From Pseudomonadota bacterium (GTDB lineage: Bacteria; Myxococcota_A; UBA9042; GCA-2863065), in NCBI GenBank assembly GCA_002863065.1, contig PKDL01000514.1, forward strand, positions 65 through 64,064: DNA of 64,000 bases, given 5' to 3'. Positions 5,246 to 37,819 of this stretch are shown piece by piece. Within the stretch, counting starts at the first letter, position 1. Every line of letters starts with the position of its first letter. Made by a program: the position numbers and the translations under genes. The notes beneath the pieces were generated by a model. The model was not told the origin of the DNA, made no database searches, and saw only the letters and a list, made by a program, of their open reading frames with translations.

Positions 5246-5998
5246 TCAGCCTTCCGACTTAAGACGAGTGCGGAAACCGTAGATTTCACGAGCGATACGC
5301 TTGATACGCTGAGTGCTTGCTACTTTAGACACGCCATGCGCTCGAGGCCTCACGATCATCGGTCTAACCGTAACAGTGTACCCACGTCGTAGTGCACGGG
5401 CGATAAGCTCAAAAGAAAAAAAGAATGTGTCGCCGGGAATGGTGTCTAAGCCGATCTCTTCCACCGCTACTCGCCGCGGAAAAAGATAAATCCCCTCCAT
5501 CGTGAAGTTGATCCCGCAAGCCCATTGCATGGCTCTCCGGAAGCCAAAGCTCAATACTCGACGTTGTAATTCTCGCTGGTTTGAATGAAAGGTAGTGACG
5601 ATATCAGCTTCCTTCAACCCTGGAAGCAAGACCTCCAGCTCAGGCGTTGGATGCTGACCGTCACCCGCGATAATCGTAAAGTAGTCGGCTGTAGCTGCCG
5701 CAATACCGGTTTTCATGCCGGCACCCATGCCTCGGTTCGTACCATGCGTCAGCACTCGGACCCGATGGTCTGCTTCTGCAAAGCGTTGTGCAACTCTCAA
5801 TGTGCCGTCGCTCGATCCGTCATCAACCACCAAGAGCTCCCACTCTCGGACCCTGGCTGTTAGGAAATCGACAGATTCCTGCAACATCGCTGGGAGGTTT
5901 TCCTCCTCGTTGTAAGCCAAGACGATGACAGCCACAGAGGGACAATCGAGTATTTTCGACGGCCGCGACTTCCGATGCTTTGCGCTCAGGTCAACCAC
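5246..5998 (-). CDS. GT2 family glycosyltransferase (polyprenol-phosphate sugar transferase, ArnC/DPM1-like)
   Basis: VAVIVLAYNEEENL ... VVDDGSSDGT ... GMGAGM... motifs of GT-A fold family 2. Confidence 0.8.
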   Translation of the reverse strand: MVDLSAKHRKSRPSKILDCPSVAVIVLAYNEEENLPAMLQESVDFLTARVREWELLVVDDGSSDGTLRVAQRFAEADHRVRVLTHGTNRGMGAGMKTGIAAATADYFTIIAGDGQHPTPELEVLLPGLKEADIVTTFHSNQRELQRRVLSFGFRRAMQWACGINFTMEGIYLFPRRVAVEEIGLDTIPGDTFFFSFELIARALRRGYTVTVRPMIVRPRAHGVSKVASTQRIKRIAREIYGFRTRLKSEG

Positions 5999-6041
5999 CC
6001 TGCCTCCCTTCTGCTATCAATATCGGTGCACGCGCTCATCG

Positions 6042-7532
6042 CTAGGGCAGCACTAGCCGCCCCAATCCAGCATCGTTTACCAGCACAAGACTGGACGCTT
6101 CTACCACTGAAACCGCACGGGCGGTATTACCGCGCTGAAACCGTGACACAACATCCTCAAGATCCGTCTGCCGAGTCACCACATATCGATGTTTGCCCTC
6201 AGGATGAGTGATTGGACCGTCACCAATGGGGTGAACCTGGCCTACCATCTGATTCATAAGAATGGACTGTTGTATCGCAAGAAACCGTGGATCTGCCGCA
6301 AACATTTCGACGCGCTTACCTCCAGAGTAAAAAGTGAGTGCTGCGGTGGTGGTATTGAATGTCGCAGTCACATCCCCTTCCTTCGCATGCCGTGCCATTA
6401 GCTCGCCCAGTGCCTTCTGATCCGGCGCCAAATCAGCATCGATCCAAAGCGCCATACGCCCAGGCGACGCGGCAAAAATCACCACGACAAGCGAGCCGAT
6501 ACACCAGGACGCATATCGACGGCGCCACCAATCGCTCGGGACTGCTGCAGGAGCCATCAAAGCAAGTCCGATAATTAATGGGAATGCGTAGTGGGGGAGG
6601 CGTGTCGAGCTTATCACCATTGGCAAAAACGCAAAGACGGACCAAAGCCCCCCAACCCAGACCGCACGCGTGATTTTGCCAGTGCGATTCCGCACCCAAG
6701 CACTTCTAATCAATGCGACACATGCCCCAAACACCAACACTGCGTCTTGAAGTACGAGAACGAGCAGGTCGCGAAGAGATATCCCAGGAACTACTGGCCG
6801 TGTTGCTCGGTCGCCAACATGGTGACCAATATAGGCGGCCCAGAATGCAGTACCATGCCTGAGTGTCGCCAGGAGATGCCAAGGTGCCGCAACAAGTATT
6901 GCGACTGCCGCAGCTGTACCAACACCTCTGAGTGCGGTTCGCCAGTCCAATCCGTTTGCCAGAAATGCGACCAGCATGATGGAGAATATCAGTGGACCAG
7001 CTGCCACTCCCTTTGCCAGGATCGCCAGGCCAGCACCGACACCGGCGTGCTTCCAATGGCCCGATAATGTCATCTGCAAAGAGTAGAGACTACACGCGAC
7101 CAGTGGTAGATCAGTCATTAGTCGACGGGACATCATCACAAAATAAAAACTCGTCAGTAACAGCAAACAGCCTGCAACAGATGCGAGCGATGAGAGACCT
7201 AGTCGGCCGTAGATGCCGAAAAGACTCCAAATTGCCAGGGCAGCGAAACACGTAAGAGGCAGCCTCAATGCGGCTTCAGACCAACCCCCAATGCCTCCGG
7301 ATAGCGCCATCGACCAAATGAGCAACGGTGGCTTTTCGAACAGAACAGTTCCAGACCAACGATTATCTACCCAATCCCCGCTTACCCACATGCTACGCGC
7401 CATTTCAGCGTACAACGCGTCGTCTGAGTCGTAATGACTTCCGCTATCCATGCCGATAGCAAAAAAAACGAACGTGACCGCAGTCAGCAGAATGCCAATT
7501 CGTCGTTCATCTGAGTTGATAGGTGCATGCAC
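6042..7532 (-). CDS. GT-C fold membrane glycosyltransferase (ArnT/PMT family 39-like); start uncertain (ORF open to 7901, likely GTG near 7532 before first TM helix)
   Basis: Multi-pass membrane protein; conserved DDALYAEMARSMWVSGDWV loop-1 motif (DE-x-x-YAEIAREM in ArnT/PMT); adjacent to GT2 gene. Confidence 0.65.
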   Translation of the reverse strand: MHAPINSDERRIGILLTAVTFVFFAIGMDSGSHYDSDDALYAEMARSMWVSGDWVDNRWSGTVLFEKPPLLIWSMALSGGIGGWSEAALRLPLTCFAALAIWSLFGIYGRLGLSSLASVAGCLLLLTSFYFVMMSRRLMTDLPLVACSLYSLQMTLSGHWKHAGVGAGLAILAKGVAAGPLIFSIMLVAFLANGLDWRTALRGVGTAAAVAILVAAPWHLLATLRHGTAFWAAYIGHHVGDRATRPVVPGISLRDLLVLVLQDAVLVFGACVALIRSAWVRNRTGKITRAVWVGGLWSVFAFLPMVISSTRLPHYAFPLIIGLALMAPAAVPSDWWRRRYASWCIGSLVVVIFAASPGRMALWIDADLAPDQKALGELMARHAKEGDVTATFNTTTAALTFYSGGKRVEMFAADPRFLAIQQSILMNQMVGQVHPIGDGPITHPEGKHRYVVTRQTDLEDVVSRFQRGNTARAVSVVEASSLVLVNDAGLGRLVLP

Positions 7533-7831
7533 GGGCTGAAGTGTGAACGGCAGAGACCATTCCGGCAACTCCACACCGAAAACGCCGTGCGAAGCACTCA
7601 ACGAAACCGAAGCGGGGTGCACTCGTAGAACCGCTCGATGTGATACGCTGCACCTCGTTTTCAGAATAATATGGCCTCTGATTACGAACAAACGCTCGAT
7701 TTGGACATTGCGCCAATAGACCGTTCGGCGGCAAAATGCGGAGGTATCCGCGCGAGAACGTACCCATCGGGTAGTCACGGAGAAGGTGAGGTCTCCATGG
7801 TTGTGAACACCGATCAAGCACCGGAGAGTAG

Positions 7832-9367
7832 ATGCGACGCCGAGACTTTCTAAAACATGCAAGCGCGATGGGGCTAGCCGCTGGGTTGACCGGCAGACCA
7901 CAGACCGCGCGGGCAGCTACCTCAATCTGGGGCCAGTACCCTGACTTCGCACTTCCCGCCCTGCTGCCGGCAGAAAAACGAGCAAAAAATGTTCTCGATA
8001 TCTTTCTATATGGTGGGCTGTCTCCGTGGGAGACATTTTACGTCGTGCCCGAATACGGGACTCCCGATAATCCGACGAATCCAAACCAGCAGTGGTGGAC
8101 CTTCCAATCAGGCGTAGATAGCGTCGAAAATGTCTATAACGGATGCTTTGGGGACGCCAAGCCACCCATGCTTCAACCATTTGGGGTGGACTACAACGGA
8201 AAAGAGGTCAACCTCGGACCATTCAGTGAGCCGTTGCGATCACGCGCCGACATCATTTCCAGGCTACGGATGCACGTGGTTACCCACTCCCTGGAGCCGC
8301 ATGAAGCAGCCATACCGTATGCAATGAGTGGTTTCCGGTTGGGTCAGCCAAAACTCGCGGGACTTGGTGCGGCTATCCAGCATTATTATCAAGCGCAGGC
8401 TCCAGTAATTACCGCAGAGCCATATGCGTATGTGCTCTATTCGCCCGGCGACTTTCCGACCGACAACCTGCGAGCCGCAAGCTCCATCGGCCTTCATCCT
8501 GGTTCCGCTCGCCCACTGGCCATTCGGGTAGAGGCAAATACATCCTTTATTGACGCACTCCAGCGACAGACGGTGTCTAGCGTCCGCCCGCAGTACGACG
8601 CCCTAATAAATCACTACCGACAAAAATATAAAGAACGCCTGCTTTACCCAGGTGCGGTGGAACCAACCCGCTCGCAAACCATGGCGGACTACAATTTCTC
8701 GATAGATACGCTTCAGCAAACAGATGCGCTCGTGGACATCCTCGAACCAAGCTACTTCAGCAGTGTGGCAGGCAGTCAATGTGGTCAAAATAGCAACAAC
8801 AACTTCCCGCGTATGGGGCTACAGCTTGCGGCCCACCTCCTTACACGAGAAAACTCAAAAGCAAGATACGTAAATGTCGTGGACGGGGGACTCATCCCAG
8901 CCTCTGGTGGTGGCGGATACGATACGCATAGCAAGCATGTCCAAGACTCCGCTCGTAATCTGAAGAACCTGTGGACTGAGCTCATTGCAATCATCAACGA
9001 GCCCGGCGAAAACGATCCAAACAAACTCAACTTGGATGAGACGCTCATCTGTATCAACACCGAGTTCGGTCGGACTCCCTGGCCCCAAGGCAACGACGGA
9101 CGGAATCATCATCCGTACGCTTATGTCACCTGCATGTTCGGTGGCCCGGTGTCCAATGATTCACAAGGCATCGTCGGAGCCATCGGACCTGATGGATATG
9201 CCTCCGGTGCATTGCATCCAGCTGAAAGCCGCGCTGCCATTCTGTCGGCGCTGGGGATCTACCCATTCGCCCCAGAGTGCTATGCCGTAAGCGATGTCTA
9301 TGGAGCCGGTTCAGAGACAGACGCGGGAATCTGGCTCAATGAAATGGTACTTGGGGTGCAATCATGA
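7832..9367 (+). CDS. DUF1501 family protein (sulfatase-like fold), Tat-secreted
   Basis: Twin-arginine signal MRRRDFLKHASAMGLAAGL...ARA; GGGYDTHSKH (WDTH-type) motif; 4-nt overlap with downstream PSCyt/DUF1553 gene. Confidence 0.65.
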   Translation: MRRRDFLKHASAMGLAAGLTGRPQTARAATSIWGQYPDFALPALLPAEKRAKNVLDIFLYGGLSPWETFYVVPEYGTPDNPTNPNQQWWTFQSGVDSVENVYNGCFGDAKPPMLQPFGVDYNGKEVNLGPFSEPLRSRADIISRLRMHVVTHSLEPHEAAIPYAMSGFRLGQPKLAGLGAAIQHYYQAQAPVITAEPYAYVLYSPGDFPTDNLRAASSIGLHPGSARPLAIRVEANTSFIDALQRQTVSSVRPQYDALINHYRQKYKERLLYPGAVEPTRSQTMADYNFSIDTLQQTDALVDILEPSYFSSVAGSQCGQNSNNNFPRMGLQLAAHLLTRENSKARYVNVVDGGLIPASGGGGYDTHSKHVQDSARNLKNLWTELIAIINEPGENDPNKLNLDETLICINTEFGRTPWPQGNDGRNHHPYAYVTCMFGGPVSNDSQGIVGAIGPDGYASGALHPAESRAAILSALGIYPFAPECYAVSDVYGAGSETDAGIWLNEMVLGVQS

Positions 9368-15358: not shown

Positions 15359-18300
15359 GTGGGTAGGAAATTCAATATCTATCGGCAGCTTGGATTCATT
15401 TGGCTTGCAGTGAGCTGCATTGCCTGTGAACCCAAGAGCACAGCGTTTGTCGCGCCGGAAAGTGTCGCTAACGACGTCGTATTATCGGAGGATATCAAGG
15501 CACCCAACGTGCGCATTCTCCCTGAGCGACCCACCAGCCGCGATGCACTCACTGCTCAGTTACTCTCTCCTGAAGCGGGAGCACAATATCACTTTCGTTG
15601 GATCGTTAATGGAGAGCTACTAGACGATCAAATCGACGAGACACTGCCAGGCGGAACCGTATCGCGGGGGCAATCCGTTGTACTTGAGGTGTCCGCTTCC
15701 AGAGACGGCAGGACCTCTCCCTGGGGAGGAGCCTCAGTGGTTATTGGTAATGCTGCCCCTGTGTGTTTACGCGCGTCGATACTTCCGAATCCCCCGACCA
15801 TTTTTGATTCGATTGAATGCCGTTGCGACGACCTGGATGACCCCGATGATGACCTGGTGGATACATTATGTTTATGGAGTGACCTTGAGCCTACTTTGAA
15901 TTCATGTAGCCGTCCGGCCCCCCATAATTGGCTGACAAATACCCTCCTTACCTGCGAACTCACAGCTATCGACTCTCGGCAAGATGCCGGAACGGTGATT
16001 GCTTCCTCGATGGTAGTAAATACACCACCGACCGGAGGACAGGTGGGGCTACAGCCGGCCCAAGTATTCGAGGATTCTCAAGTCCGTTGCCTGGCGAGCG
16101 GAGCCACTGACCCTGACGGAGTATCTTGGAATTACGATATATTGGTCGACGGGCTGTTGGCCGCCACGGGTCCTGAGGCCGAAATCAACGGTAATAGCTT
16201 CGATAAAGGACAGAGCATCCAATGTATTGCCACCGCGACCGACGGAATAGCCAAAGGACAACCCATTGCATCTGAGACTGTAGTAGTCGGTGACTCGCCA
16301 GCAAGTGTTGTCGCCATACAAGCCACGCCACCCGTCGTAACTCGCCTTCAGACCCCAAGTTGCGACATCACGATGACCGATCCAGACCTGAGTGATATCC
16401 CAGAATCCGTTACGACATGGTGGCGTAATGGTGTGGTTCTCGACTGGGAGCCGGCCAGTCCACTCGGTAATACCGTAGTTCCCGGCGATACGATCTTTTG
16501 CAGTGCAACCCCACTGGACTATCCCGGTGAAAGTACGCCGAAATTATCGAATAACCTTTTAGTCAAGAATCTCGGACCTGACCTGGCCGGGGTCGATATT
16601 CTCCCTGAAGCGCCCACCATCTCAGATGTACTCACGTGTGTACCGTATGCGCACGATCCCGAAGGGGACCCCATGGTATTTAGCTATAGCTGGTCGGTTG
16701 ACGGCGCCCAAATTACGGATGCCGGCGCGACGCTCAGCGGTATCACCGCGGGGTCCTTAGTGCAATGCGAAGTGCAAGTCAGCGATGCGTATGGTGATAC
16801 CGCGTCAATGGCATCGTCCACCGTCGCCGTAGTGCACTCTCCTCCATACATCGAGGGGATTGCTATGCTGCCAACAACTCCAGGACCGTGCGACTCTGTG
16901 AGCTGCATTGTCAACGATGTCAGCGACCCCGATGGAACGAGTAATCTCACTATAGCGACCACCCTTCTTCTCAACGGCGTACCCACTTCAGAGACGACCT
17001 TTGCGGTAGGTGCAGAGCTACAATGTATTGCGACAATCACCGACGAGACGGGACTCAATGTCACGGCTTCATCCACCATCAGCCAGGTTACAAACACCCC
17101 ACCAACACTGTCGGCAGTCACGATTTCACCCGCGCAACCGACGGCAGGTGATACCCTGACTTGTGCACCGGTCGATGCAATCGATCCCGATTGCAACACT
17201 CCACCCGCAGCTATCATCGAATGGGTGAGTGAAGCAGGGGTGACTTCTGGTGGCGCATTAGAAACCACAGCCGAACAAGCAGGCCAACAAGTCACGTGTT
17301 CCTTGACGGTATCAGACGGCTACGACTCGTCGACTGCGGTGCAGTCTACGGTCACGCTGGCGCCCCCACCAAGCCTTCCCACGGTGACCATAACCACCGA
17401 TATCAACGGGTCGGTTATATGCTCGCCGGAATCACCGCTAAATTCCCCGTCGTGGTTTTGGCGCGTAGGAAACAATGACGAATTCCAAGGGCCCTGGTTT
17501 TTGCCACCATCGACGTATCAGGACTGCGATCGTGTCACTTGTCGTGCAGAAAGTAATGGCCTGGCGACCAATATCGCTGAAGCCCTAATACCACTGGGGC
17601 CTGACTGCGATGACGGCTCACTCTGTACCCTAGATACCTGCTCACCTGCGGGCGGCTGTAGCCATACGGCATTGTCCGGCGCCTGTGATGATGGCGATAA
17701 CTGTACCGAGAATGATGCATGCCAGGACGCGATATGCAGCGGGTCCCCAACCGACTGTGATGATGACAACCCGTGCACCACGGAGCTTTGCGTGTCTGGC
17801 TTCGGATGCAATTACGGATATGCCAATGGGCCTTGTGATGATGGCGATGCCTGCACTCTCGATGATTATTGCATCGAGGGCAGCTGCGGCTTCGCCTCAA
17901 CCGCCATATGCGATGATGGAGATGTATGTACTGATGACGCCTGCGACTCCGAATTAGGCTGCATCGGTTGGCCCAATGTGTCTGTGTGCGATGATGGGAA
18001 TTCCTGCACACATATGGACGTATGTGCTGATGGTGACTGTCAAGGTAAACCGCTCACCGAATCAATCACTTGCCCCGATCCCGCGAGTCCCCTCGGGTAC
18101 TGCAGCAATGGGGTGTGCGTGAGCAATATCCCCCCACAGATCCCAATCCTCACGATATCACCCAGCATAGCGCAGGCAGGCAGCCCATTGATCTGCTCCG
18201 CAGTCGCTACTGATCCGGACAGCTGGCCAGCGCCAATGCAGTACACATTCCGTTGGACGCGAGAGCCAGCGGGGATTCAAATTGCTGATGGTCCAGAACT

Positions 18301-19489
18301 GCCAGGCGATCTACTGTCGAAAGGTGATGTGCTTGCGTGCCGAGCCACGGCATCAGACGGATTATTATCGTCGTTAGAAGCAATTATATTGGCCAAGGTC
18401 GTCAATGCCCCACCAGTTGTCGAATCGGTGTCCTTGACGGCAAATGATACGACGGTCACGTGCAATAGTGAGACCTATGATCCTGATACCGAAGACAGCC
18501 TAAATCTTAGTTATGCATGGTTTGCCGATGGGCTTTCTCTACCGCTGGATAGCCACACGGTCTCATCACATTCATTACCTGCCTGTAGCAATGTTACCTG
18601 CGAAGTTACCGTCGATGATGGACATGCGAGCAATGTGAAAACGGCATCACCTCTTGACGTCGATAACCCGAAAGCCTGTGGTCCAGAACCATGCTTAGTG
18701 TGGTCGTGCTCTGCCAACGGATGTACTTCCGTGCCTGGCGTCGGACCGTGCGATGACGGTAACCCATGCACTGGTTCGGGTATCTGCATCAATTCTGTCT
18801 GCGTTGCTGAGCCACTACCCGACGACGCGTGCAATGACAGCAATGTATGCACAACAGACAGTTGTAATGCAGACGTCGGCTGCGTTCATACCCCCGTATC
18901 GTTCGGAGTCGACTGCAATGCAGATGATTCCGTTTGTACAGAGGCGGACTTCTGCAATGCGATGGGCACATGCATTCCAGGCCCCCCGATCAGCTGTGAT
19001 GATGGCATCGCGTGCACATCCGACGCATGTGACCCCAACGATGGGTGCATCGCTACTTTGCCGGGGGAGTCTATCGGCTTCGCCATCGATTTTGGAATGA
19101 CCGAAGAATTTCTTCCATTCGCAGATGAGGCCACCACCGAGCTGGTTCAAGGTCCCCAGGGTGGAGAACACATCGAGTTTTCTTTGCAATACCTCTTGCC
19201 ATCGTCCTTCAATTGGCAGCCGCTGCGATCTAGAGTCATTGTCACCCTGGAGGGACCATGTTGCGGCGGTCTTCCTATCGGGGGGATGTACTTACCAAAC
19301 GTCCTGAGCGACTTAGAAGGCCCCAATGTATACGTGAGTGGCATGGTGATAGGTATCTTTGATCAGGAAATAACGACGGGCTCGACCGTATGCGCAACGG
19401 TCGAAGTGACAGTTTATGACGAACCAGGAACCACCGCAGTCAACACCAGCACTGCGAGGCATATGTTTACTATTATCGACACCGAGTAA
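15359..19489 (+). CDS. Giant secreted lipoprotein/adhesin-like protein: multiple Ig/cadherin-like beta domains plus two blocks of slime-mold-type (Dicty_CTDC-like) Cys repeats
   Basis: Lipobox WLAVSCIAC; repeated ~90-aa beta-rich units (ATxPxxxT..CxxxxDPD); CDDGNxCTxDxCxxxxGC repeated >12 times at nt ~17600-18120 and ~18670-19060. Confidence 0.7.
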   Translation: MGRKFNIYRQLGFIWLAVSCIACEPKSTAFVAPESVANDVVLSEDIKAPNVRILPERPTSRDALTAQLLSPEAGAQYHFRWIVNGELLDDQIDETLPGGTVSRGQSVVLEVSASRDGRTSPWGGASVVIGNAAPVCLRASILPNPPTIFDSIECRCDDLDDPDDDLVDTLCLWSDLEPTLNSCSRPAPHNWLTNTLLTCELTAIDSRQDAGTVIASSMVVNTPPTGGQVGLQPAQVFEDSQVRCLASGATDPDGVSWNYDILVDGLLAATGPEAEINGNSFDKGQSIQCIATATDGIAKGQPIASETVVVGDSPASVVAIQATPPVVTRLQTPSCDITMTDPDLSDIPESVTTWWRNGVVLDWEPASPLGNTVVPGDTIFCSATPLDYPGESTPKLSNNLLVKNLGPDLAGVDILPEAPTISDVLTCVPYAHDPEGDPMVFSYSWSVDGAQITDAGATLSGITAGSLVQCEVQVSDAYGDTASMASSTVAVVHSPPYIEGIAMLPTTPGPCDSVSCIVNDVSDPDGTSNLTIATTLLLNGVPTSETTFAVGAELQCIATITDETGLNVTASSTISQVTNTPPTLSAVTISPAQPTAGDTLTCAPVDAIDPDCNTPPAAIIEWVSEAGVTSGGALETTAEQAGQQVTCSLTVSDGYDSSTAVQSTVTLAPPPSLPTVTITTDINGSVICSPESPLNSPSWFWRVGNNDEFQGPWFLPPSTYQDCDRVTCRAESNGLATNIAEALIPLGPDCDDGSLCTLDTCSPAGGCSHTALSGACDDGDNCTENDACQDAICSGSPTDCDDDNPCTTELCVSGFGCNYGYANGPCDDGDACTLDDYCIEGSCGFASTAICDDGDVCTDDACDSELGCIGWPNVSVCDDGNSCTHMDVCADGDCQGKPLTESITCPDPASPLGYCSNGVCVSNIPPQIPILTISPSIAQAGSPLICSAVATDPDSWPAPMQYTFRWTREPAGIQIADGPELPGDLLSKGDVLACRATASDGLLSSLEAIILAKVVNAPPVVESVSLTANDTTVTCNSETYDPDTEDSLNLSYAWFADGLSLPLDSHTVSSHSLPACSNVTCEVTVDDGHASNVKTASPLDVDNPKACGPEPCLVWSCSANGCTSVPGVGPCDDGNPCTGSGICINSVCVAEPLPDDACNDSNVCTTDSCNADVGCVHTPVSFGVDCNADDSVCTEADFCNAMGTCIPGPPISCDDGIACTSDACDPNDGCIATLPGESIGFAIDFGMTEEFLPFADEATTELVQGPQGGEHIEFSLQYLLPSSFNWQPLRSRVIVTLEGPCCGGLPIGGMYLPNVLSDLEGPNVYVSGMVIGIFDQEITTGSTVCATVEVTVYDEPGTTAVNTSTARHMFTIIDTE

Positions 19490-22699: not shown

Positions 22700-23290
22700 T
22701 CAACCGAAATATTCAGGGGCATTCCCCGGTAACCACTTAATATTGCAACCCAAACTCGGGCGCTGCTCTTCTGGCGACTCAATACCCGAAAATACGGCGT
22801 GGACTGCAGCTCGTAAATCGGCTCCAGTCACTGGAATATCAGAACCCGGGCGGCTGTCATCCAATTGACCGCGGTAAAACAATCTGCCGGCTGAATCATA
22901 CAGAAAAAAGTCTGGAGTACATGCCGCTCCGAATGCTTTCGCGACGCTTTGGGTCTCATCCAAACAGAACGGAAAGTTCATCCCAGCCGATGTACCCAAG
23001 GATTTCATCGCCTCCGGTCCGTCCTGAGGATACCGCTCTACGTCATTTGAATTAATGGCAATGACTCGCCCACCTCGATCAACAATGTCATTCGCGAGCC
23101 GGATCATCTCGTCCATAACGTGCACGACGAACGGGCAATGGTTGCAGATGAACATGAACAGAGTGTGTTGCCCAGCAACCATATCTGAATCAACCGACTT
23201 CCCGGTGATTTGGTCGATCATACGAAATGACGGCATAACAGAGCCTAGCGGTGCCATTGTCGAGGGGGTACGTGCCATGTGGTTCTCCAA
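22700..23290 (-). CDS. Thioredoxin-fold redoxin family protein (CxxC = CNHC)
   Basis: FMFICNHCPFVVHV redox motif in thioredoxin-like context; downstream of SGNH/MBOAT genes. Confidence 0.55.
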   Translation of the reverse strand: MENHMARTPSTMAPLGSVMPSFRMIDQITGKSVDSDMVAGQHTLFMFICNHCPFVVHVMDEMIRLANDIVDRGGRVIAINSNDVERYPQDGPEAMKSLGTSAGMNFPFCLDETQSVAKAFGAACTPDFFLYDSAGRLFYRGQLDDSRPGSDIPVTGADLRAAVHAVFSGIESPEEQRPSLGCNIKWLPGNAPEYFG

Positions 23291-23336: not shown

Positions 23337-25052
23337 CTATGCGTCGGGATGGTCGCTGAGCCAGTGTGCAAAGTCCTTCAGCAGCGCTTGATAGAACATC
23401 ACTCCCAGTACTTTATTTCCCTTGCTCGTCATGTGAGCAAAATCTCCAGACATGAGACCGCTTTTATACCAACGGCCGGACGCACCATCGCCACCCATTG
23501 CCTCGAACGTATTGTAAAATGCGCAACCGACTGACGCGGCGATAGAACGCTGAATAGGAACCATCTCTAGCATCCTACGGTTCGTACGAATTCTACCTCG
23601 GTACTTTTCACCATGGGCCACCGGCGTCATCACTAGACAACTCGCCTCGGGACGCCCCGCTCGCATGCGCCGTATGGCCGCTGTGTACTTTTCTGCGTAG
23701 GTATCGAGACTTCCGCTATCTCCTACTTCATTTCCCCCGTACATGAATACCTGAAGGTCGGGTGACCGATGCTCTACTTGCGCTTTGATGTGTTCCGAAT
23801 TGAAATTCAACAGACGACTTGAACGCGTCCCCACCATTTGCACTGCATCGTAGACGATGCCCGGCCCAGCTGTTTCGAGAGTGACGCCATACGTGTGCAC
23901 ATTACCACCGCCGGACGCGCGTACTTCGAATGTGTGCTTACCAGGTCCACTCGCTGAAAATACGCGATAACGATCCGCTGGAAGGTCCTCACGAGTCTCA
24001 AATTCGCTCCAGTCTCCACCATCGATTCGCACAGAAATTCTGCCGCCACGAGGAAACGCCAGGTAATACAATTCCAGACGGTCAGCATACGCTTCGTACG
24101 TCGACTTGGCCCCCCAGCCAATTCCAGCGACACCGCCGTATCCATATCGACCTGGAGCCCAGCGTGACTTTGATAATTTATTGCTTGTTACGGTCTTAGA
24201 CTTCCAGCCGCGGGCCTTGTAAATCACGTCCTTCTGTCGATACCACTGCCACCCCGGTGCAACGTTCACCCATCCTTTACCCGCGCTTCCAAATCTCGTC
24301 TGCAGCTTCCGACGTATCGAGGACGTCAATCCGTCCGCCCCGATAACAGAGTCGCCGTAGTGAGACACACGCACCACGGCACCAGCCTCGCGGCGCCCCG
24401 TACGAACCAACTGCCGGTAAAAGTGATCAAGGGTTCCATTGGTCAACTCAAAATCCATCGGTACGTTTTCGTAATCCGACGTAGTGATATGCAATGCTGG
24501 ATGTTTGGGCGGTTTGGGCGGCTCAGGCGCCACCACAGCCGATGCCATGCGTACATCAGAGGCTGAAGCTCCCATATCTGCGGTCGAACCTCCTGATAGA
24601 TCCACCGACTTTTCCGCACCATCCGACGTCCGTATCGAGTTTGAGACCGCCGATGGTGCCATGGGTGAAAGCGATGTCCCGACAGGTGGAGGCGCGAGTA
24701 GCTCAGCCTCGTCGGTTGTATCCTCAACTACAGCCGCTGCAATGAGTGACGTATCGATTCCCGAGGCATCGGCACCTTCTGTGTTCGAATCGAATGTAAC
24801 TAGTCCGTTAGCAAGGTGCGTGGGCGCTTCACTACCCGATGCTCTCTGGCCGCCCATCCAGTGAGCAAATGGTACCGCCTCTCCATCGATCCAAGGCCGA
24901 TAGTCCTCAAGGGCAGGAACCACATACGTGAGCGCTACGCAGCAGAGCACCATTACCCCGGTCCCAAGCCCTTGTAATAACGCGCGTCGTGTCTCTTCCT
25001 CAGACACACGTTCCGGTACATCAGGGGCTAGGTCACTAATGCTCAATATCAT
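23337..25052 (-). CDS. Membrane-anchored SGNH/GDSL hydrolase-fold protein (AlgX/AlgJ/PatB-like O-acyltransferase partner)
   Basis: N-terminal TM anchor; block I HYGDSVIG (GDS), block III YGGNEV, block V DFAH (DxxH); immediately downstream of MBOAT gene. Confidence 0.65.
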   Translation of the reverse strand: MILSISDLAPDVPERVSEEETRRALLQGLGTGVMVLCCVALTYVVPALEDYRPWIDGEAVPFAHWMGGQRASGSEAPTHLANGLVTFDSNTEGADASGIDTSLIAAAVVEDTTDEAELLAPPPVGTSLSPMAPSAVSNSIRTSDGAEKSVDLSGGSTADMGASASDVRMASAVVAPEPPKPPKHPALHITTSDYENVPMDFELTNGTLDHFYRQLVRTGRREAGAVVRVSHYGDSVIGADGLTSSIRRKLQTRFGSAGKGWVNVAPGWQWYRQKDVIYKARGWKSKTVTSNKLSKSRWAPGRYGYGGVAGIGWGAKSTYEAYADRLELYYLAFPRGGRISVRIDGGDWSEFETREDLPADRYRVFSASGPGKHTFEVRASGGGNVHTYGVTLETAGPGIVYDAVQMVGTRSSRLLNFNSEHIKAQVEHRSPDLQVFMYGGNEVGDSGSLDTYAEKYTAAIRRMRAGRPEASCLVMTPVAHGEKYRGRIRTNRRMLEMVPIQRSIAASVGCAFYNTFEAMGGDGASGRWYKSGLMSGDFAHMTSKGNKVLGVMFYQALLKDFAHWLSDHPDA

Positions 25053-25097
25053 CTCCTGCGATAAGCTTATGCGAACCGGAGCCCGCGGTTATACGTC

Positions 25098-26531
25098 CTA
25101 AAACGCAAAATAAATGAATGGCACGGGCTGTGTATTCGATAAGTAGACCATCCACCAAGTCATAATCCCAAGTGCTATTCCCTGGAGTGGCCAGGGAGCG
25201 GCCACAAATACATACCCAGCCTGGTCCACCCACCGCTTCGGTGACCAGTGCACAGCAAAGCTAACGGCCAGGACAAGCCAAATCTTCCAATGAATATGAT
25301 CGAGGCCCCAGTCCGGCCCAAACAGAGCGATAAAAACGCGCCAGGCTTCATCGAGGTTCTGTCCTCGAAACAAGACCCTTGCCACCGATACAAATAAAAA
25401 AGCGAACGCAACACGCCAGATAAGGTTCCAGCCCGTGAGATCGTAGGCGAGCTTCAAGCGAACACGACGCTGATTGTGATATCGATTTACGCAGACGACA
25501 AAGCCATGAAACACCCCGTACCAAAAGAACGTCCAATTGGCTCCGTGCCACAGTCCCATAACGATGAGAACCACCATGATATTCATGTATGCTCGGGTAT
25601 CGCCTTTTCTGGTGCCTCCAAGGGGGAAGTAGATGTAGTGGCGGACCCAGAGCGACAGCGTCATATGCCAACGGCGCCAGAACTTAGCCACGGATTCAGC
25701 CTGATATGGCCGCTGAAAGTTGATGGGCAACTCATAGCCAAAAAACTTGCCGCTACCACGGGCAAGATCGGTATAGCCCGAAAAGTCGCAGTATATCTGC
25801 ATCGAGTAGGCGAATAGCCCCAAGAGAACCTCTGCAGATGTAAAATCACCAGTGCGTGCATAAATGCGGTCGACCAGATTAATCCCGAGGAAATCCGCAA
25901 TTGCTACCTTCTTTATGAGCCCCTTGATCGTCAGAAATATTCCCTCTGATAGCTGTCTTCGAGTCAGTTGAGGTGGCCGTTCAAACTGCGGAATCAAGTG
26001 AGATGCCAGTACAATTGGACCGGCCACGAGCTGGGGAAAGAACGATACAAAAAGCGCAAATTTCACAAAGTTTCGAATCGGCTGTTGGTCACCCCGGAAA
26101 ATATCGATGCTGTAGGCCATCGTTTGAAACGTATAGAAGGAAATGCCCACGGGGAGCGCAGCCCGGAGAAAGGGAAACGCCACTGATTCATCGAACCAAC
26201 CCATCGATATGAGTACTGTGCGGATACTGTCGAGAAAGAAGTCGTAATACTTAAAGGTCCCCAATAGCCCAAGATTTGTCACCAGGCTGATAGTTAGAAA
26301 CAGCTTCTTTCGTGCTTTTGACTTCGCTTCCGCAATCTGGATGCCGCAGGTGTAGTCTACGACCGTCGACCCCAGGATCAGGAGAATGTAGACCGCCTTG
26401 GCATTCATGTAGAAAAACCACGATGCCAAAAGGAGCATCGTCAGACGCAACATACGGAATCGAGCGAGGCCCCAAGATAAAATGAAGGCCACGACTAGGA
26501 AGATTGCGTAGCTTAGTGAGTTAAACGCCAA
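25098..26531 (-). CDS. MBOAT family membrane-bound O-acyltransferase (AlgI/DltB/PatA-like)
   Basis: Multi-TM; conserved FWRRWHMTLSLWVRHYIYFPLGG histidine motif. Confidence 0.85.
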   Translation of the reverse strand: MAFNSLSYAIFLVVAFILSWGLARFRMLRLTMLLLASWFFYMNAKAVYILLILGSTVVDYTCGIQIAEAKSKARKKLFLTISLVTNLGLLGTFKYYDFFLDSIRTVLISMGWFDESVAFPFLRAALPVGISFYTFQTMAYSIDIFRGDQQPIRNFVKFALFVSFFPQLVAGPIVLASHLIPQFERPPQLTRRQLSEGIFLTIKGLIKKVAIADFLGINLVDRIYARTGDFTSAEVLLGLFAYSMQIYCDFSGYTDLARGSGKFFGYELPINFQRPYQAESVAKFWRRWHMTLSLWVRHYIYFPLGGTRKGDTRAYMNIMVVLIVMGLWHGANWTFFWYGVFHGFVVCVNRYHNQRRVRLKLAYDLTGWNLIWRVAFAFLFVSVARVLFRGQNLDEAWRVFIALFGPDWGLDHIHWKIWLVLAVSFAVHWSPKRWVDQAGYVFVAAPWPLQGIALGIMTWWMVYLSNTQPVPFIYFAF

Positions 26532-26944: not shown

Positions 26945-28108
26945 ATGAAGACGAAGTGTCTGGTGTGCGGAGAATTATCTGAAGCAACGGCGCTGTTGTG
27001 CTCTCATTGTGGTGCGCCGTTACCCGAATCCGCGCCGGCGTCCGTAGTTCCGCACCACCCCAGACACAGGCAGGCATTCAGCCGGCTCGCGCGGGTCGCC
27101 GCAGCGGGAATCGCCGCTGTCATTATAGTAGTGGTTGCAGTCACCCTCACTTCGAAGAACAGCTTGACCCCAAATTCGACGCTGGAGACGATGCCAAACG
27201 GAATGAACTCGATAAGCGCTTGGAACCTATCTCAACTCTGGAAGTACGAAAAACTGCAGCCGCTATGGGGTAACCCCATCGTGAAGCAGTACTTCGGGAC
27301 GGCGAAGTCCATGGCGGGGATCGACGTCGAGGCTCTCGATTCATTTGTCGCTGGCTCTCGCCTCACAGATCAGCAATTCGAAGTCTTGTACGTTGTGAAA
27401 GGAGCGTTCGACGCCACCACTCTCAACGGAATAATCGGTACGTTTTGCACGAGCGAAATCGTTGTCGCTCAGCGGCGGCTCAAGTCATGCGACCTCAATA
27501 GCTTGGTCACGCAGTCCACATTGCCAACGTCGGATGACGAGAATGGAGGTAAAGCTGGCGACGAAAAGGTGCCAGAAGCATCCATTACAGCAATTCCCGA
27601 GATTACGGCGCCGATTTCCCTAGGAATAGTGGCTGTTGGAGTATGGGACGCAACTACATTCGTCGCGGGGACACCAGACATGCTAGAGGCGTATTTCACC
27701 GGCGGCGACGCTGTCGGTGGCAACGAAACCCTGGAATTACTAATGAAAGATGCTGACCCCACTGCATTTGGATGGGGCGGTCTGCAACTCAACACCGTGT
27801 ATACGCAATTATGCGACGCCTTCCCCATGTTGGTATCGTTCCCCAAACTAGAGGATGGAACGCTGCAATTTGAGATGCAGCTTCGGGAAGTCCTGGGACT
27901 GCGCCTAATCCTGGAGGTCGCAGACGTACAAACAATCAAGATGATGGAGCCCGTCATAAGAATAGGGCTTGCTAGCGCTATCAAGACCGCAAACGAAAGT
28001 CTCGCATTGACGGGTCAAACCGACTTGCTCGCTGCAGAGATTGAAGTGAACGAAACACGGTTCGAGGTTCAATTCACGCTGAAAATCCCCGCGCTGCCCG
28101 CCATCTAG
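26945..28108 (+). CDS. Hypothetical membrane protein: N-terminal zinc-ribbon (CxxC...CxxC), one TM helix, periplasmic domain
   Basis: CLVCGELSEATALLCSHCGAPL; TM AAGIAAVIIVVVAV; no recognisable catalytic motif. Confidence 0.45.
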   Translation: MKTKCLVCGELSEATALLCSHCGAPLPESAPASVVPHHPRHRQAFSRLARVAAAGIAAVIIVVVAVTLTSKNSLTPNSTLETMPNGMNSISAWNLSQLWKYEKLQPLWGNPIVKQYFGTAKSMAGIDVEALDSFVAGSRLTDQQFEVLYVVKGAFDATTLNGIIGTFCTSEIVVAQRRLKSCDLNSLVTQSTLPTSDDENGGKAGDEKVPEASITAIPEITAPISLGIVAVGVWDATTFVAGTPDMLEAYFTGGDAVGGNETLELLMKDADPTAFGWGGLQLNTVYTQLCDAFPMLVSFPKLEDGTLQFEMQLREVLGLRLILEVADVQTIKMMEPVIRIGLASAIKTANESLALTGQTDLLAAEIEVNETRFEVQFTLKIPALPAI

Positions 28109-35340: not shown

Positions 35341-36732
35341 CTATCCTGGCGGTAGGCTCTCCTCATCACACCACCTCACCAAATCGGCGAGACAAAGTCG
35401 GCCATCATGCGCCCAAACCATAGACGGCGTACCCATCGCTCCTGGAGGGCAAATCCTAGTCACACCCAAGCGTGCTAATTGAAGTCGGTCCTCCTCAGAT
35501 ATTCCCGCAACAGCCGCACATTGGAGGTACTGGCGCACCGGATTGATCTGCGCAAATACATCCTCGGCTTTATCTACGGGTACCACTGTCACAAAGCGGT
35601 CTAACGGACCTGGCTTTAGGGTATCGAGCTGCCGAATAACGACAGACGACTGCAAGGTATCGCTCACGAGTCGAGCATCTCCCATGGCGGCCTCTACTCG
35701 GCTAAGTTCGAGCGCACTTCGGAGGGCTGGAGCCTCTTCAGGCAACAAGGCGCGAGCAGGTAGCCTTTTCCGCACCTTGGTCATGGCATTGGATAGCTGC
35801 TCCGCAAACGTTTCCGGCGAGACCTCACCACCGGATTCGACATACACAGCTTGCGGCGCAAGACATGCGTGCTGGTCGAACACGCTAAAATCATATGCCA
35901 ATTTTTCGGCCAGTCCGAGGCTGTCTGACGTGGTCATCACCGATGAGGTAAGCCATGCAAAGCCCATACGATGTCCATGCCAAGTAGCACGAGATCCGTG
36001 CGGAAGCCGTTTTTCGATCTCAGCGAGTGCTGCGTCTCCTCCATACGCAATGAGGTGATCGCTACACTCGAGAAATGCATCACTAAGCTCATGCTTATCC
36101 CGGTCGTAATACACTACTGCCAAGCACTCGCTCAGCTCTGGGTCGATGGCTGCGAGCGATTGTGCGTATAAAGGTAAATATAATGGTTCGCCACGACTCA
36201 CACGCCCCATACAGGCTGCTTTCACAAGAAAGGAGCGCATAACGGTCAGATGTGGCAAGGCGGGAATATTCGCGCTAAAAATGCCGCCGATCAGCTCTGG
36301 ACCGACCGCCGTTGAGCGGCCCTTTGGAGTCTTAATAAAACCATCAAGAGCGAGTCGATTACCCAGTTCCCGGTCAAGTGCTCTACGCATATCTGGACCG
36401 CGAGAACTAATCTGCTCGAGATGAATCGCATGCGACACCATCTCCTCAGAAAATCCCGATAAGACCGAAATCGCCGTCACTGCGTGACTGCGGAGTGGCG
36501 TATCTTCCAACCAGAACCGCGCTACTGAGTCGAGAGCCTCAATAATCTCGTCGATAGACCGACGCGCAAGCACTTCACGACGGCGTGCTTTCAATCGAGC
36601 AGCACATTGCCGTATTTGGGAGACTGTCAGGACGGGAAACCGTACCTCAATCGACCGTCCATCACGTACCGCGGTCATTGCCGTAGTCTCAACCTGAATA
36701 CCTGGTAGCCAAAACGCATCGTAACTAGCCAC
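35341..36732 (-). CDS. LuxC-family acyl-CoA (acyl-protein) reductase
   Basis: ~460 aa; catalytic-Cys block VFDQHACLAPQAVYV as in LuxC; follows LuxE-like gene with overlap. Confidence 0.7.
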   Translation of the reverse strand: MASYDAFWLPGIQVETTAMTAVRDGRSIEVRFPVLTVSQIRQCAARLKARRREVLARRSIDEIIEALDSVARFWLEDTPLRSHAVTAISVLSGFSEEMVSHAIHLEQISSRGPDMRRALDRELGNRLALDGFIKTPKGRSTAVGPELIGGIFSANIPALPHLTVMRSFLVKAACMGRVSRGEPLYLPLYAQSLAAIDPELSECLAVVYYDRDKHELSDAFLECSDHLIAYGGDAALAEIEKRLPHGSRATWHGHRMGFAWLTSSVMTTSDSLGLAEKLAYDFSVFDQHACLAPQAVYVESGGEVSPETFAEQLSNAMTKVRKRLPARALLPEEAPALRSALELSRVEAAMGDARLVSDTLQSSVVIRQLDTLKPGPLDRFVTVVPVDKAEDVFAQINPVRQYLQCAAVAGISEEDRLQLARLGVTRICPPGAMGTPSMVWAHDGRLCLADLVRWCDEESLPPG

Positions 36733-37819
36733 CGGTTTGTCCTCCCAGCATGGCGTCTATCGTGAGCGAACAACCCTTCGACTCAACTCCCTTCGCCCGC
36801 CCCAATACCGTCCAGCCTAGCGCATCTCGTACCCCCAAATCGTCGGTAAGTACCGCACATGGCCGTTCTAAGTTGGCCAGGTCCCAATGACAGAGCAGAC
36901 CCGGAGTACCATGGGCAGCAAACTGCATCGAACGTGGGTCCAGCACCACAGTTCGAGTCCAGGGCGCATTAGACTTGCGGCGCCGCTGAGGATCGCGGTG
37001 TATCAATACATCATCGTAGAATTGACTAGCGAGCTCCGTCATTCCAAGTAAATTGACGCTGAGATGGGCAGGAATTGCCAGTGTCTCGGTAATCGCCCGA
37101 TCCATGTCATTTCGCCGCACCACACGGGACCTTCCCTTGAATCCACCGGCATCCATTAGTCGGCTGCCCTCCGGCAGCTGCAACGTCAGGGATTTAGCGG
37201 CAAGACCATCCAGAAGGTGAACGAACCCGAAGCTAGCACCGATCAATGTGACCGGGATGTTGGCACGGATGCAGTCCGTGAAAGTCTGCATCAAACCATT
37301 TTGGTCCAAACCCTCTGGACCGACGAGAAATCGAGAACCTGGTAAACCGAAATGTTGGATGAGCTGCTCCATTCCCCACGCCATAATCATATGCGGAGCT
37401 AAAGAAGGCGAAGGGGCAAGTACCAGAATGACCGTATTGCGCCCTTCGGGTAAAAAATATTTGCGTGCATTCTGCAGAATACTTTCCGCCATCAGAGTGA
37501 GGCCGGCTTCAGAAAAGTGGGCTTTTGACTTCGGTGCGCCGCTCGTACCGCTCGAAAAAAACGTATGCGCAAGCGCACCGTCATCGAACATGGAATATGA
37601 CTTAAAAGCACGAGCGGGTATCGCGGGGATATCATTCCAGCGCTGAACCCTATCAGGCGTGTTTCCAGTGTAGTCCGCTACCCGACGGACAACCTCAATG
37701 TGCTTATACTGGTACTCGAATACCGCAAGGGCAAGCGCATTGAAGTCTCCAACTTCGGGTGTCCGGATAAATGACACCAGGCGATCGTGCAGGGCATCGT
37801 GTGCGAGTTCCCGAGTCAC
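36725..37819 (-). CDS. LuxE-family acyl-protein synthetase (adenylate-forming)
   Basis: N-terminal FEYQYKHIEVVRRVADYTG...WNDIPAIPARAFK...FSSGTSG typical of LuxE/acyl-protein synthetase. Confidence 0.7.
   Translation of the reverse strand: MTRELAHDALHDRLVSFIRTPEVGDFNALALAVFEYQYKHIEVVRRVADYTGNTPDRVQRWNDIPAIPARAFKSYSMFDDGALAHTFFSSGTSGAPKSKAHFSEAGLTLMAESILQNARKYFLPEGRNTVILVLAPSPSLAPHMIMAWGMEQLIQHFGLPGSRFLVGPEGLDQNGLMQTFTDCIRANIPVTLIGASFGFVHLLDGLAAKSLTLQLPEGSRLMDAGGFKGRSRVVRRNDMDRAITETLAIPAHLSVNLLGMTELASQFYDDVLIHRDPQRRRKSNAPWTRTVVLDPRSMQFAAHGTPGLLCHWDLANLERPCAVLTDDLGVRDALGWTVLGRAKGVESKGCSLTIDAMLGGQTGG

Follow-up and report, generated by a model that had tools for sequence, protein, structure and literature searches.

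A myxobacterial MBOAT gene paired with a membrane-anchored, Ape1-fold SGNH protein: a candidate envelope O-acetylation module

The MBOAT protein and its anchored SGNH partner

The window (the whole stretch of contig PKDL01000514.1 analysed here, 64,000 nt; its coordinates count from its first letter) carries two adjacent minus-strand genes, which encode a PatA/AlgI-type MBOAT and a membrane-anchored SGNH protein of predicted Ape1 fold, named SGNH1. The MBOAT gene (25098-26531, 477 amino acids) starts with TTG. The SGNH1 gene (23337-25052, 571 amino acids) follows after a spacer of 45 bp (25053-25097, minus strand). This gene order is conserved in Myxococcota, and the pair is read here as a probable acyl relay that would O-acetylate a polymer of the cell envelope. 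An earlier reading of the DNA (the sequence-only reading) had given both genes, the spacer length and a downstream CxxC gene (22700-23290), together with the motifs WRRWH...YFPLGG, GDS, GGNE, DFAH and CxxC. The positions are correct, all three genes are on the minus strand, and every motif is found in the translations, far beyond chance.

The TTG start of the MBOAT gene lies five codons downstream of an in-frame TAG, and homologues of 477 amino acids align with the product over 100% of its length. The spacer holds an AGGAG ribosome-binding site; promoter and terminator scans of the spacer gave nothing above shuffled expectation. Because the AGGAG box directly abuts the annotated ATG of SGNH1 at 25052, the true start may be the TTG at 25046, two codons inside the annotated open reading frame (ORF).

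The MBOAT product matches its Pfam family (PF03062) with 77.6 bits (cutoff 27; E 1.4e-21) and contains FWRRWH...YIYFPLGG. His289 (WRRWH; codon 25665-25667, minus strand) is the invariant catalytic histidine of MBOATs and lies within the DltB-aligned region; the equivalent residue of Campylobacter jejuni PatA, His315, is required for auto-acetylation (PMC12148441). The best solved relatives are DltB structures (8jem and 6bug, about 1e-25 over residues 128-350). Identity as DltB (D-alanyl transfer) is rejected: the DltB equivalog model (NCBIfam TIGR04091) gives 144.8 bits, far under its cutoff of 375, and no dltA, dltC, dltX or dltD turned up in Pfam scans that covered the pair, the ORF of the redoxin downstream and 30 further ORFs from 38 to 50632. 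The match to the DltB model stops near residue 390 of 477. The extension of about 87 residues contains hydrophobic segments and ends with the hexapeptide FIYFAF (residues 472-477; 25101-25118, minus strand), an FxYxxF acyl-shuttle motif with Tyr474 as its tyrosine. The pattern x-I-Y-x-x-F is present at the extreme C-terminus, in the same register, in all 120 closest MBOAT homologues.

PatA-type MBOATs carry the C-terminal FxYxxF acyl-shuttle on two extra helices that are missing in DltB, and its tyrosine is auto-acetylated from acetyl-CoA in a histidine-dependent reaction (Anderson et al., PMC12148441). PatA of Neisseria gonorrhoeae ends with FIYANF; the tyrosine is the acetyl carrier, and the acetylated motif peptide donates its acetyl group to PatB (PMC12148441). 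Since His289 and Tyr474 are both present and the tail is kept in the 120 homologues, the window MBOAT is, by sequence and by analogy with PatA, a complete shuttle MBOAT in itself, one that depends on an SGNH acceptor. Its homologues number in the thousands, the closest being from Myxococcota metagenome-assembled genomes (MAGs). A scaffold of TARA Oceans encodes an MBOAT that is 98% identical, with unchanged gene order; the window DNA is therefore from a marine Myxococcota lineage.

The transmembrane anchor ascribed to the SGNH protein by the sequence-only reading is borne out: SGNH1 has a single N-terminal hydrophobic helix (residues 29-47; 24912-24968, minus strand; Kyte-Doolittle 19-residue mean 1.99, the only such segment). 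A comparable helix is present in 76/83 SGNH1-class ORFs. It is followed by LTYVVPAL and the juxtamembrane motif RPWIDGE (residues 52-58; 24879-24899, minus strand), which correspond to the family consensus LTYxVPxL...RPWxPGE. The pattern [RK]PWx[PDE]G occurs upstream of block I in 46/83 SGNH1-class ORFs versus 0/42 ORFs of the second class of paralogues (SGNH2, see below); the motif is also kept in a second alignment of SGNH1 homologues. A low-complexity linker of about 140 amino acids, rich in Ala, Ser, Pro, Gly, Thr and Asp (approximately residues 60-200; 24453-24875, minus strand), separates this segment from the catalytic region. It is unconserved among the homologues, many of which cover just 58-77% of the query.

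The catalytic region (residues 219-567; 23352-24398, minus strand) is Ape1-like: an SGNH domain split by a beta-sandwich. HYGDSVIG, MYGGNEVG and GDFAHM are all present. The catalytic codons, on the minus strand, are those of Ser235 (24348-24350), Asn441 (23730-23732), Asp537 (23442-23444) and His540 (23433-23435). These residues and Gly408 are invariant in 49 SGNH1 homologues. The CBM35-like beta-sandwich is inserted after block I (approximately residues 256-394; 23871-24287, minus strand). The Pfam family Lipase_GDSL_2 matches with 44.3 bits (cutoff 32.9) over residues 384-547 only; block I is missed.

The placement in the Ape1 family comes from sequence and from a predicted structure. A phmmer search of the PDB sequences with SGNH1 gives one significant match, 4k3u (E 6.8e-12), the peptidoglycan O-acetylesterase Ape1 of Neisseria meningitidis. 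The alignment covers residues 219-553, from block I through an insert of about 140 residues to block V. An AlphaFold2 model of residues 195-571, built with 49 homologues, has a mean pLDDT (predicted local distance difference test) of 96.9. It superposes on Ape1 at 2.2 A over 338 residues, with 16-20% identity, and the all-beta segment at model residues 62-200 falls on the Ape1 CBM35 domain. In Foldseek, the template-modelling scores against Ape1 are 0.80/0.86; the next class scores 0.3. S235, G408, N441, D537 and H540 align with the triad and oxyanion-hole residues of Ape1, taken here, in the native numbering, to be Ser80, Gly236, Asn268, Asp366 and His369. Both sequence and model thus give SGNH1 the predicted architecture of Ape1, in which a CBM35-like beta-sandwich interrupts the SGNH domain after block I. 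A segment of about 100 amino acids after motif I defines the Ape1a and Ape1b subfamilies (PMC1199599); SGNH1 shows this insert, the Ser-His-Asp triad and the Gly/Asn oxyanion hole.

The sequence-only reading had likened the pair to AlgI/AlgJ-AlgX, PatA/PatB and OatA and had proposed searches for the AlgX/AlgJ, DltD and PatB families. The relay-type pairing stands; the kinship of the partner does not. The AlgX/AlgJ (PF16822) and DltD (PF04914) models do not match SGNH1, NCBIfam finds nothing, and the Pfam match is the generic GDSL one. No AlgX, AlgJ or DltD chain is among the top 60 structural matches of the model. An AlgX/AlgJ-, DltD- or PatB-type partner is therefore rejected; in the case of PatB, the two beta-hairpin wings and the atypical block II are also missing. 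SGNH1 is not an OatA-type fusion either, as it has no AT3 domain.

Conservation across Myxococcota and the second paralogue

A pattern scan of GTDB species genomes, built on 22 closer sequences, gives SGNH1 relatives in at least 555 of them; their neighbours were mapped by tblastn for the best 80. These 80 loci, nearly all of Myxococcota, include Nannocystis, Enhygromyxa, Paraliomyxa, Sandaracinus, Polyangiales and a MAG labelled Anaeromyxobacter. Sequence homologues of SGNH1 are almost all from Myxococcota MAGs, and the nearest genome relative of the window protein has only 58% identity with it. An MBOAT gene is directly upstream, on the same strand, in 75/75 loci with enough upstream DNA, the other five being cut by contig ends. 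The same pairing is found in further related loci, here numbered with the prefix L: L001, L003, L088 and L089. The spacing in the relatives varies from 0 to a few hundred bp, or the genes overlap (L001: base 8001 is shared). Five high-GC loci have ORFs of 986-1128 amino acids that would join MBOAT and SGNH1. They are rejected as Rosetta-stone fusions: WRRWH is absent, and they are out-of-frame upstream extensions overlapping the MBOAT gene.

It is highly improbable that the two genes are neighbours by chance and that SGNH1, as a secreted lipase or esterase of generic type, has nothing to do with the MBOAT. Database names ('lysophospholipase L1-like esterase') and Pfam/NCBIfam results (generic GDSL or none) would suit such a protein; the phylum-wide gene order already contradicts it, the fold is specifically that of Ape1 and not that of a lipase, and the acyl-shuttle tail of the MBOAT requires a partner. 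The sequence-only reading had named as its refutation a generic lipase or esterase with no link to O-acyltransferases; sequence and structure place SGNH1 instead in the Ape1 family, genetically tied to PatA MBOATs.

A second Ape1-fold gene is in or beside the locus in 54/80 cases, and likewise at L001 (9485-10741, minus strand) and L003 (4938-6341, plus strand). The commonest type, SGNH2, has about 29% identity to SGNH1 and a distinct block I, GASH(V/T)AxD; its gene is either downstream in convergent orientation or directly upstream. A third class (GASMIGxD), closer to SGNH1 and scoring low against Ape1, supplies the second copy in about 11 loci, mostly of Nannocystaceae. Against N. meningitidis Ape1, SGNH2 proteins score 77-101 bits and SGNH1-class proteins 21-76 bits, with 46-48 bits for the window SGNH1. 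SGNH2 paralogues also match C. jejuni Ape1; the window SGNH1 matches the N. meningitidis protein only. SGNH1 is thus not the Ape1 orthologue, the neighbouring SGNH2 being closer to the characterised enzyme. The common arrangement of the phylum is an MBOAT, a tethered diverged Ape1 paralogue and an Ape1-like protein, formally parallel to patA-patB-ape1. The window and its closest relatives (L005-L009, L088, L089) have the MBOAT and SGNH1 only.

All-against-all clustering of the neighbouring ORFs, noisy from spurious high-GC ORFs, gave no universal partner besides the MBOAT and SGNH genes. MatE, SDR, NUDIX and DUF445 genes recur beside the module within one Polyangiales clade only.

More distant relatives have peptidoglycan-enzyme genes at the locus. 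On a Bacteroidales contig (L085, 3407-9444), genes for an SLT+LysM protein, an Ape1-like protein, an SGNH protein (422 amino acids) and an MBOAT (554 amino acids) are in one direction; this O-acetylpeptidoglycan (OAP)-type cluster has no PatB gene, adjoins one for a peptidoglycan lytic transglycosylase and fits the ape1b-ape1c-pat type (Weadge et al. 2005). On another distant contig, an M23 peptidase gene adjoins an SGNH-SGNH-MBOAT series. These clusters and the ape1b-ape1c-pat type of Bacteroides tie the wider family to peptidoglycan.

Candidate relay, its direction and its acceptor

A functional MBOAT-SGNH acyl-relay pair is very probable. The extracytoplasmic O-acylation module that the sequence-only reading had proposed is strongly supported by the 75/75 informative loci and by the FxYxxF tail. 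The full statement, in which the two genes are a co-transcribed envelope O-acetylation module, SGNH1 is the transferase and peptidoglycan is the target, is advanced with moderate confidence. Cytoplasmic acetyl-CoA would supply the acetyl group, which the MBOAT would accept at His289 and load on Tyr474 of its periplasmic FIYFAF tail. SGNH1 would be kept beside the MBOAT by its transmembrane helix and its RPWxPGE segment. The acetyl group would move to Ser235 of SGNH1, served by the Ser-His-Asp triad and the Gly408/Asn441 oxyanion hole, and would then be handed to a hydroxyl of a long glycan held in the cleft between the SGNH and CBM35-like modules. The likeliest acceptor would be the C6-OH of N-acetylmuramic acid (MurNAc) in peptidoglycan. 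SGNH1 would thus have the fold of the Ape1 de-acetylase and the position of PatB in the patA-patB-ape1 cluster of Neisseria and Campylobacter. In most other Myxococcota, the de-acetylase would be the Ape1-fold paralogue encoded within the locus or beside it, which is usually the closer relative of true Ape1. Acetyl is preferred as the acyl group because the MBOAT carries its own shuttle motif, as PatA does, and because the scanned neighbours include no genes for a Dlt-type carrier.

The relay from MBOAT to acyl-tyrosine, SGNH serine and polymer is that of AlgI-AlgJ-AlgX-AlgF (alginate), WssH-WssI (cellulose) and DltB-DltX-DltD (teichoic acid); AlgJ and DltD are likewise anchored by a transmembrane helix. 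The PatA-PatB-Ape1 OAP cluster of Neisseria and Campylobacter shares more features: an MBOAT with the catalytic His and a C-terminal FxYxxF, then an SGNH protein with an N-terminal transmembrane anchor and a long, dispensable-looking linker, as expected at the PatB position, and, in most related genomes, an Ape1-fold gene that completes the cluster. It differs in that the protein in the place of PatB is of Ape1 fold, Ape1 being the esterase and not the transferase of the known system. SGNH1 resembles Ape1 (PDB 4k3u, 8gld) in its bimodular fold, with CBM35 inserted after block I, and in its triad and oxyanion hole. It differs in block I (GDSVIGAD; G(D/A)SH(T/V)AGD in Ape1 and SGNH2), in the existence of SGNH2 as a separate paralogue closer to Ape1, and in its tether (transmembrane helix, RPWxPGE motif, linker of about 140 amino acids) and constant coupling to an MBOAT, Ape1 being soluble in the periplasm. 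The ape1b-(ape1c)-pat clusters of Bacteroides and the pat-ape3 pairs are also OAP-type, lack a PatB/Ape2 gene, and have SGNH proteins of the Ape family as partners of the MBOAT; in pat-ape3, as here, one SGNH gene follows the MBOAT gene (PMC1199599). In the Bacteroides clusters, the insert-bearing Ape1b is encoded upstream of pat, whereas here the insert-bearing gene is downstream of pat and its product has a transmembrane anchor. Ape1c and Ape3 have no insert, unlike SGNH1. None of these cluster variants has been biochemically characterised.

Several observations weigh against this reading, and those on the direction of the reaction weigh most. The best match of SGNH1, in sequence and in structure, is a characterised esterase, and SGNH1 keeps the oxyanion hole canonical for hydrolases (block II Gly, block III Asn). 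No feature of its active site marks a transferase, the atypical block II and the two beta-hairpin wings of PatB being absent; this is the main weakness. Moreover, the SGNH2 paralogue is missing from the window, where tblastn queries with two such paralogues matched the SGNH1 gene and no other. SGNH1 could be a membrane-tethered O-acetylpeptidoglycan esterase, functionally an Ape1, the transferase being encoded elsewhere (PatB-type) or being SGNH2, the second SGNH gene present near most loci. This is considered unlikely. SGNH2, not SGNH1, is closer to true Ape1. SGNH1 is always directly behind the MBOAT and is the only SGNH protein encoded in the window and at the loci of the closest relatives, and it alone has the transmembrane anchor and the juxtamembrane motif expected for docking to an MBOAT. 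A PatA-type MBOAT needs an SGNH acceptor (PMC12148441). Since the oxyanion hole is of hydrolase type and the special features of PatB are lacking, it is the genetic logic that argues for transfer over hydrolysis.

The other objections concern the acceptor. No peptidoglycan gene is beside the pair in the Myxococcota loci, and the searchable literature yielded no account of O-acetylated peptidoglycan from myxobacteria. Myxobacteria produce several acetylated surface polysaccharides. The substrate of a genuine MBOAT-SGNH transferase pair could be some other glycan of the periplasm or the surface (candidates being an exopolysaccharide, a polymer of the spore coat or capsule, and a lipopolysaccharide-linked glycan), as alginate is for AlgI/J/X and cellulose for WssH/I. 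Weadge et al. left room for other acetylated glycans as substrates of some Ape-like proteins (PMC1199599). Such a target has a low probability here. None of the approximately 80 loci has linked genes for glycan synthesis or export; polymer-specific acetylation genes normally sit within the biosynthetic operon of their polymer.

The sequence-only reading had left the target polymer unspecified; the Ape1 fold and the SLT/LysM and M23 neighbours of the distant relatives now point to peptidoglycan. Peptidoglycan is preferred because the whole cleft architecture of Ape1, a cleft proposed to hold long peptidoglycan strands, is retained, because the constant core is in variable housekeeping contexts throughout the phylum and has no linked polymer synthase, as a universal substrate would lead one to expect, and because distant relatives adjoin peptidoglycan-enzyme genes.

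MBOAT-SGNH relays and OAP clusters are already known; literature searches on this module and on myxobacterial peptidoglycan O-acetylation returned nothing relevant. No description was found of an insert-bearing, membrane-anchored Ape1 paralogue in the position of PatB, conserved in a phylum and often accompanied by a second Ape1-like gene. A tentative history is that, in Myxococcota, a duplicated Ape1 esterase replaced PatB, acquired an anchor and a segment for docking to the MBOAT, and now works as a transferase. One SGNH+CBM35 scaffold would then serve both for writing and for erasing the O-acetylation of peptidoglycan, and predatory bacteria might use O-acetylation to shield their own walls from the muramidases they secrete. 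If confirmed, the module would give peptidoglycan O-acetylation a third solution for its SGNH transferase step, after PatB and OatA's C-terminal domain, built on the scaffold of an enzyme that normally removes acetyl groups. SGNH1 and SGNH2 would be a natural test of the change from esterase to transferase: same fold, two directions, one locus. The module would also be the first indication of peptidoglycan O-acetylation in Myxococcota, with bearing on two matters in predators that secrete lysozyme-like enzymes, the avoidance of self-lysis and the control of their lytic transglycosylases. In the species genomes of the pattern scan, its genes are annotated merely as 'GDSL esterase' and 'MBOAT family protein'.

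Surroundings of the pair

The surroundings are ordinary chromosomal housekeeping DNA of about 54% GC. The window encodes RNase G, Ffh, GpsA, an RsmB/F-type methyltransferase, a Xer-type recombinase, an HslU-like ATPase and a class-III aminotransferase; no tRNA gene was found in it.

The CxxC gene that the sequence-only reading had described as thioredoxin-like is real and on the same strand as the pair. It encodes 196 amino acids with CNHC (22700-23290, minus strand; 46 bp downstream of the SGNH1 gene) and matches the Redoxin and AhpC-TSA Pfam families (both about 1e-13); it has no signal peptide. As a part of the module it does not stand up: none of the 80 mapped loci has a redoxin gene beside the pair, and it is probably a mere neighbour, unrelated to the module. 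The downstream SDR and amidohydrolase genes are rejected as members along with it.

Divergent from the MBOAT gene, an ORF of 387 amino acids (26945-28108, plus strand) encodes a protein that matches no Pfam family and has a zinc-ribbon-like CxxC...CxxC motif in its N-terminal part and a single hydrophobic helix. Its divergent position is kept in the closest relatives (L006, L009, L088, L089) and not across the wider phylum.

A protein of 1376 amino acids (15359-19489, plus strand) has the Dictyostelium CTDC cysteine-rich repeat as its sole Pfam match (1.8e-12). Proteins with eukaryote-like EGF/teneurin, COLFI and serpin domains are encoded near the module at L003. Together they look like part of the myxobacterial repertoire of eukaryote-like extracellular proteins.

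At 35341-37819 (minus strand), a LuxC-like acyl-CoA reductase gene (463 amino acids, 3e-77) adjoins a LuxE-like acyl-protein synthetase gene (364 amino acids), followed by a pyridine-nucleotide oxidoreductase gene. The first two are a fatty-aldehyde-forming pair with no obvious luciferase genes.

A lytic transglycosylase with TPR and SLT domains is encoded at 38-2092 (plus strand). Enzymes of this kind are the ones that MurNAc 6-O-acetylation blocks; at 21 kb from the MBOAT-SGNH1 pair, the distance is too great for linkage to be argued. A GT2 glycosyltransferase gene lies beside one for a PMT_2 membrane glycosyltransferase (ArnT/dolichyl-phosphate-mannose type) at 5246-7901 (minus strand), 17 kb from the pair; the two resemble a pair for polyprenyl-phosphate sugar transfer that serves an envelope glycoconjugate.

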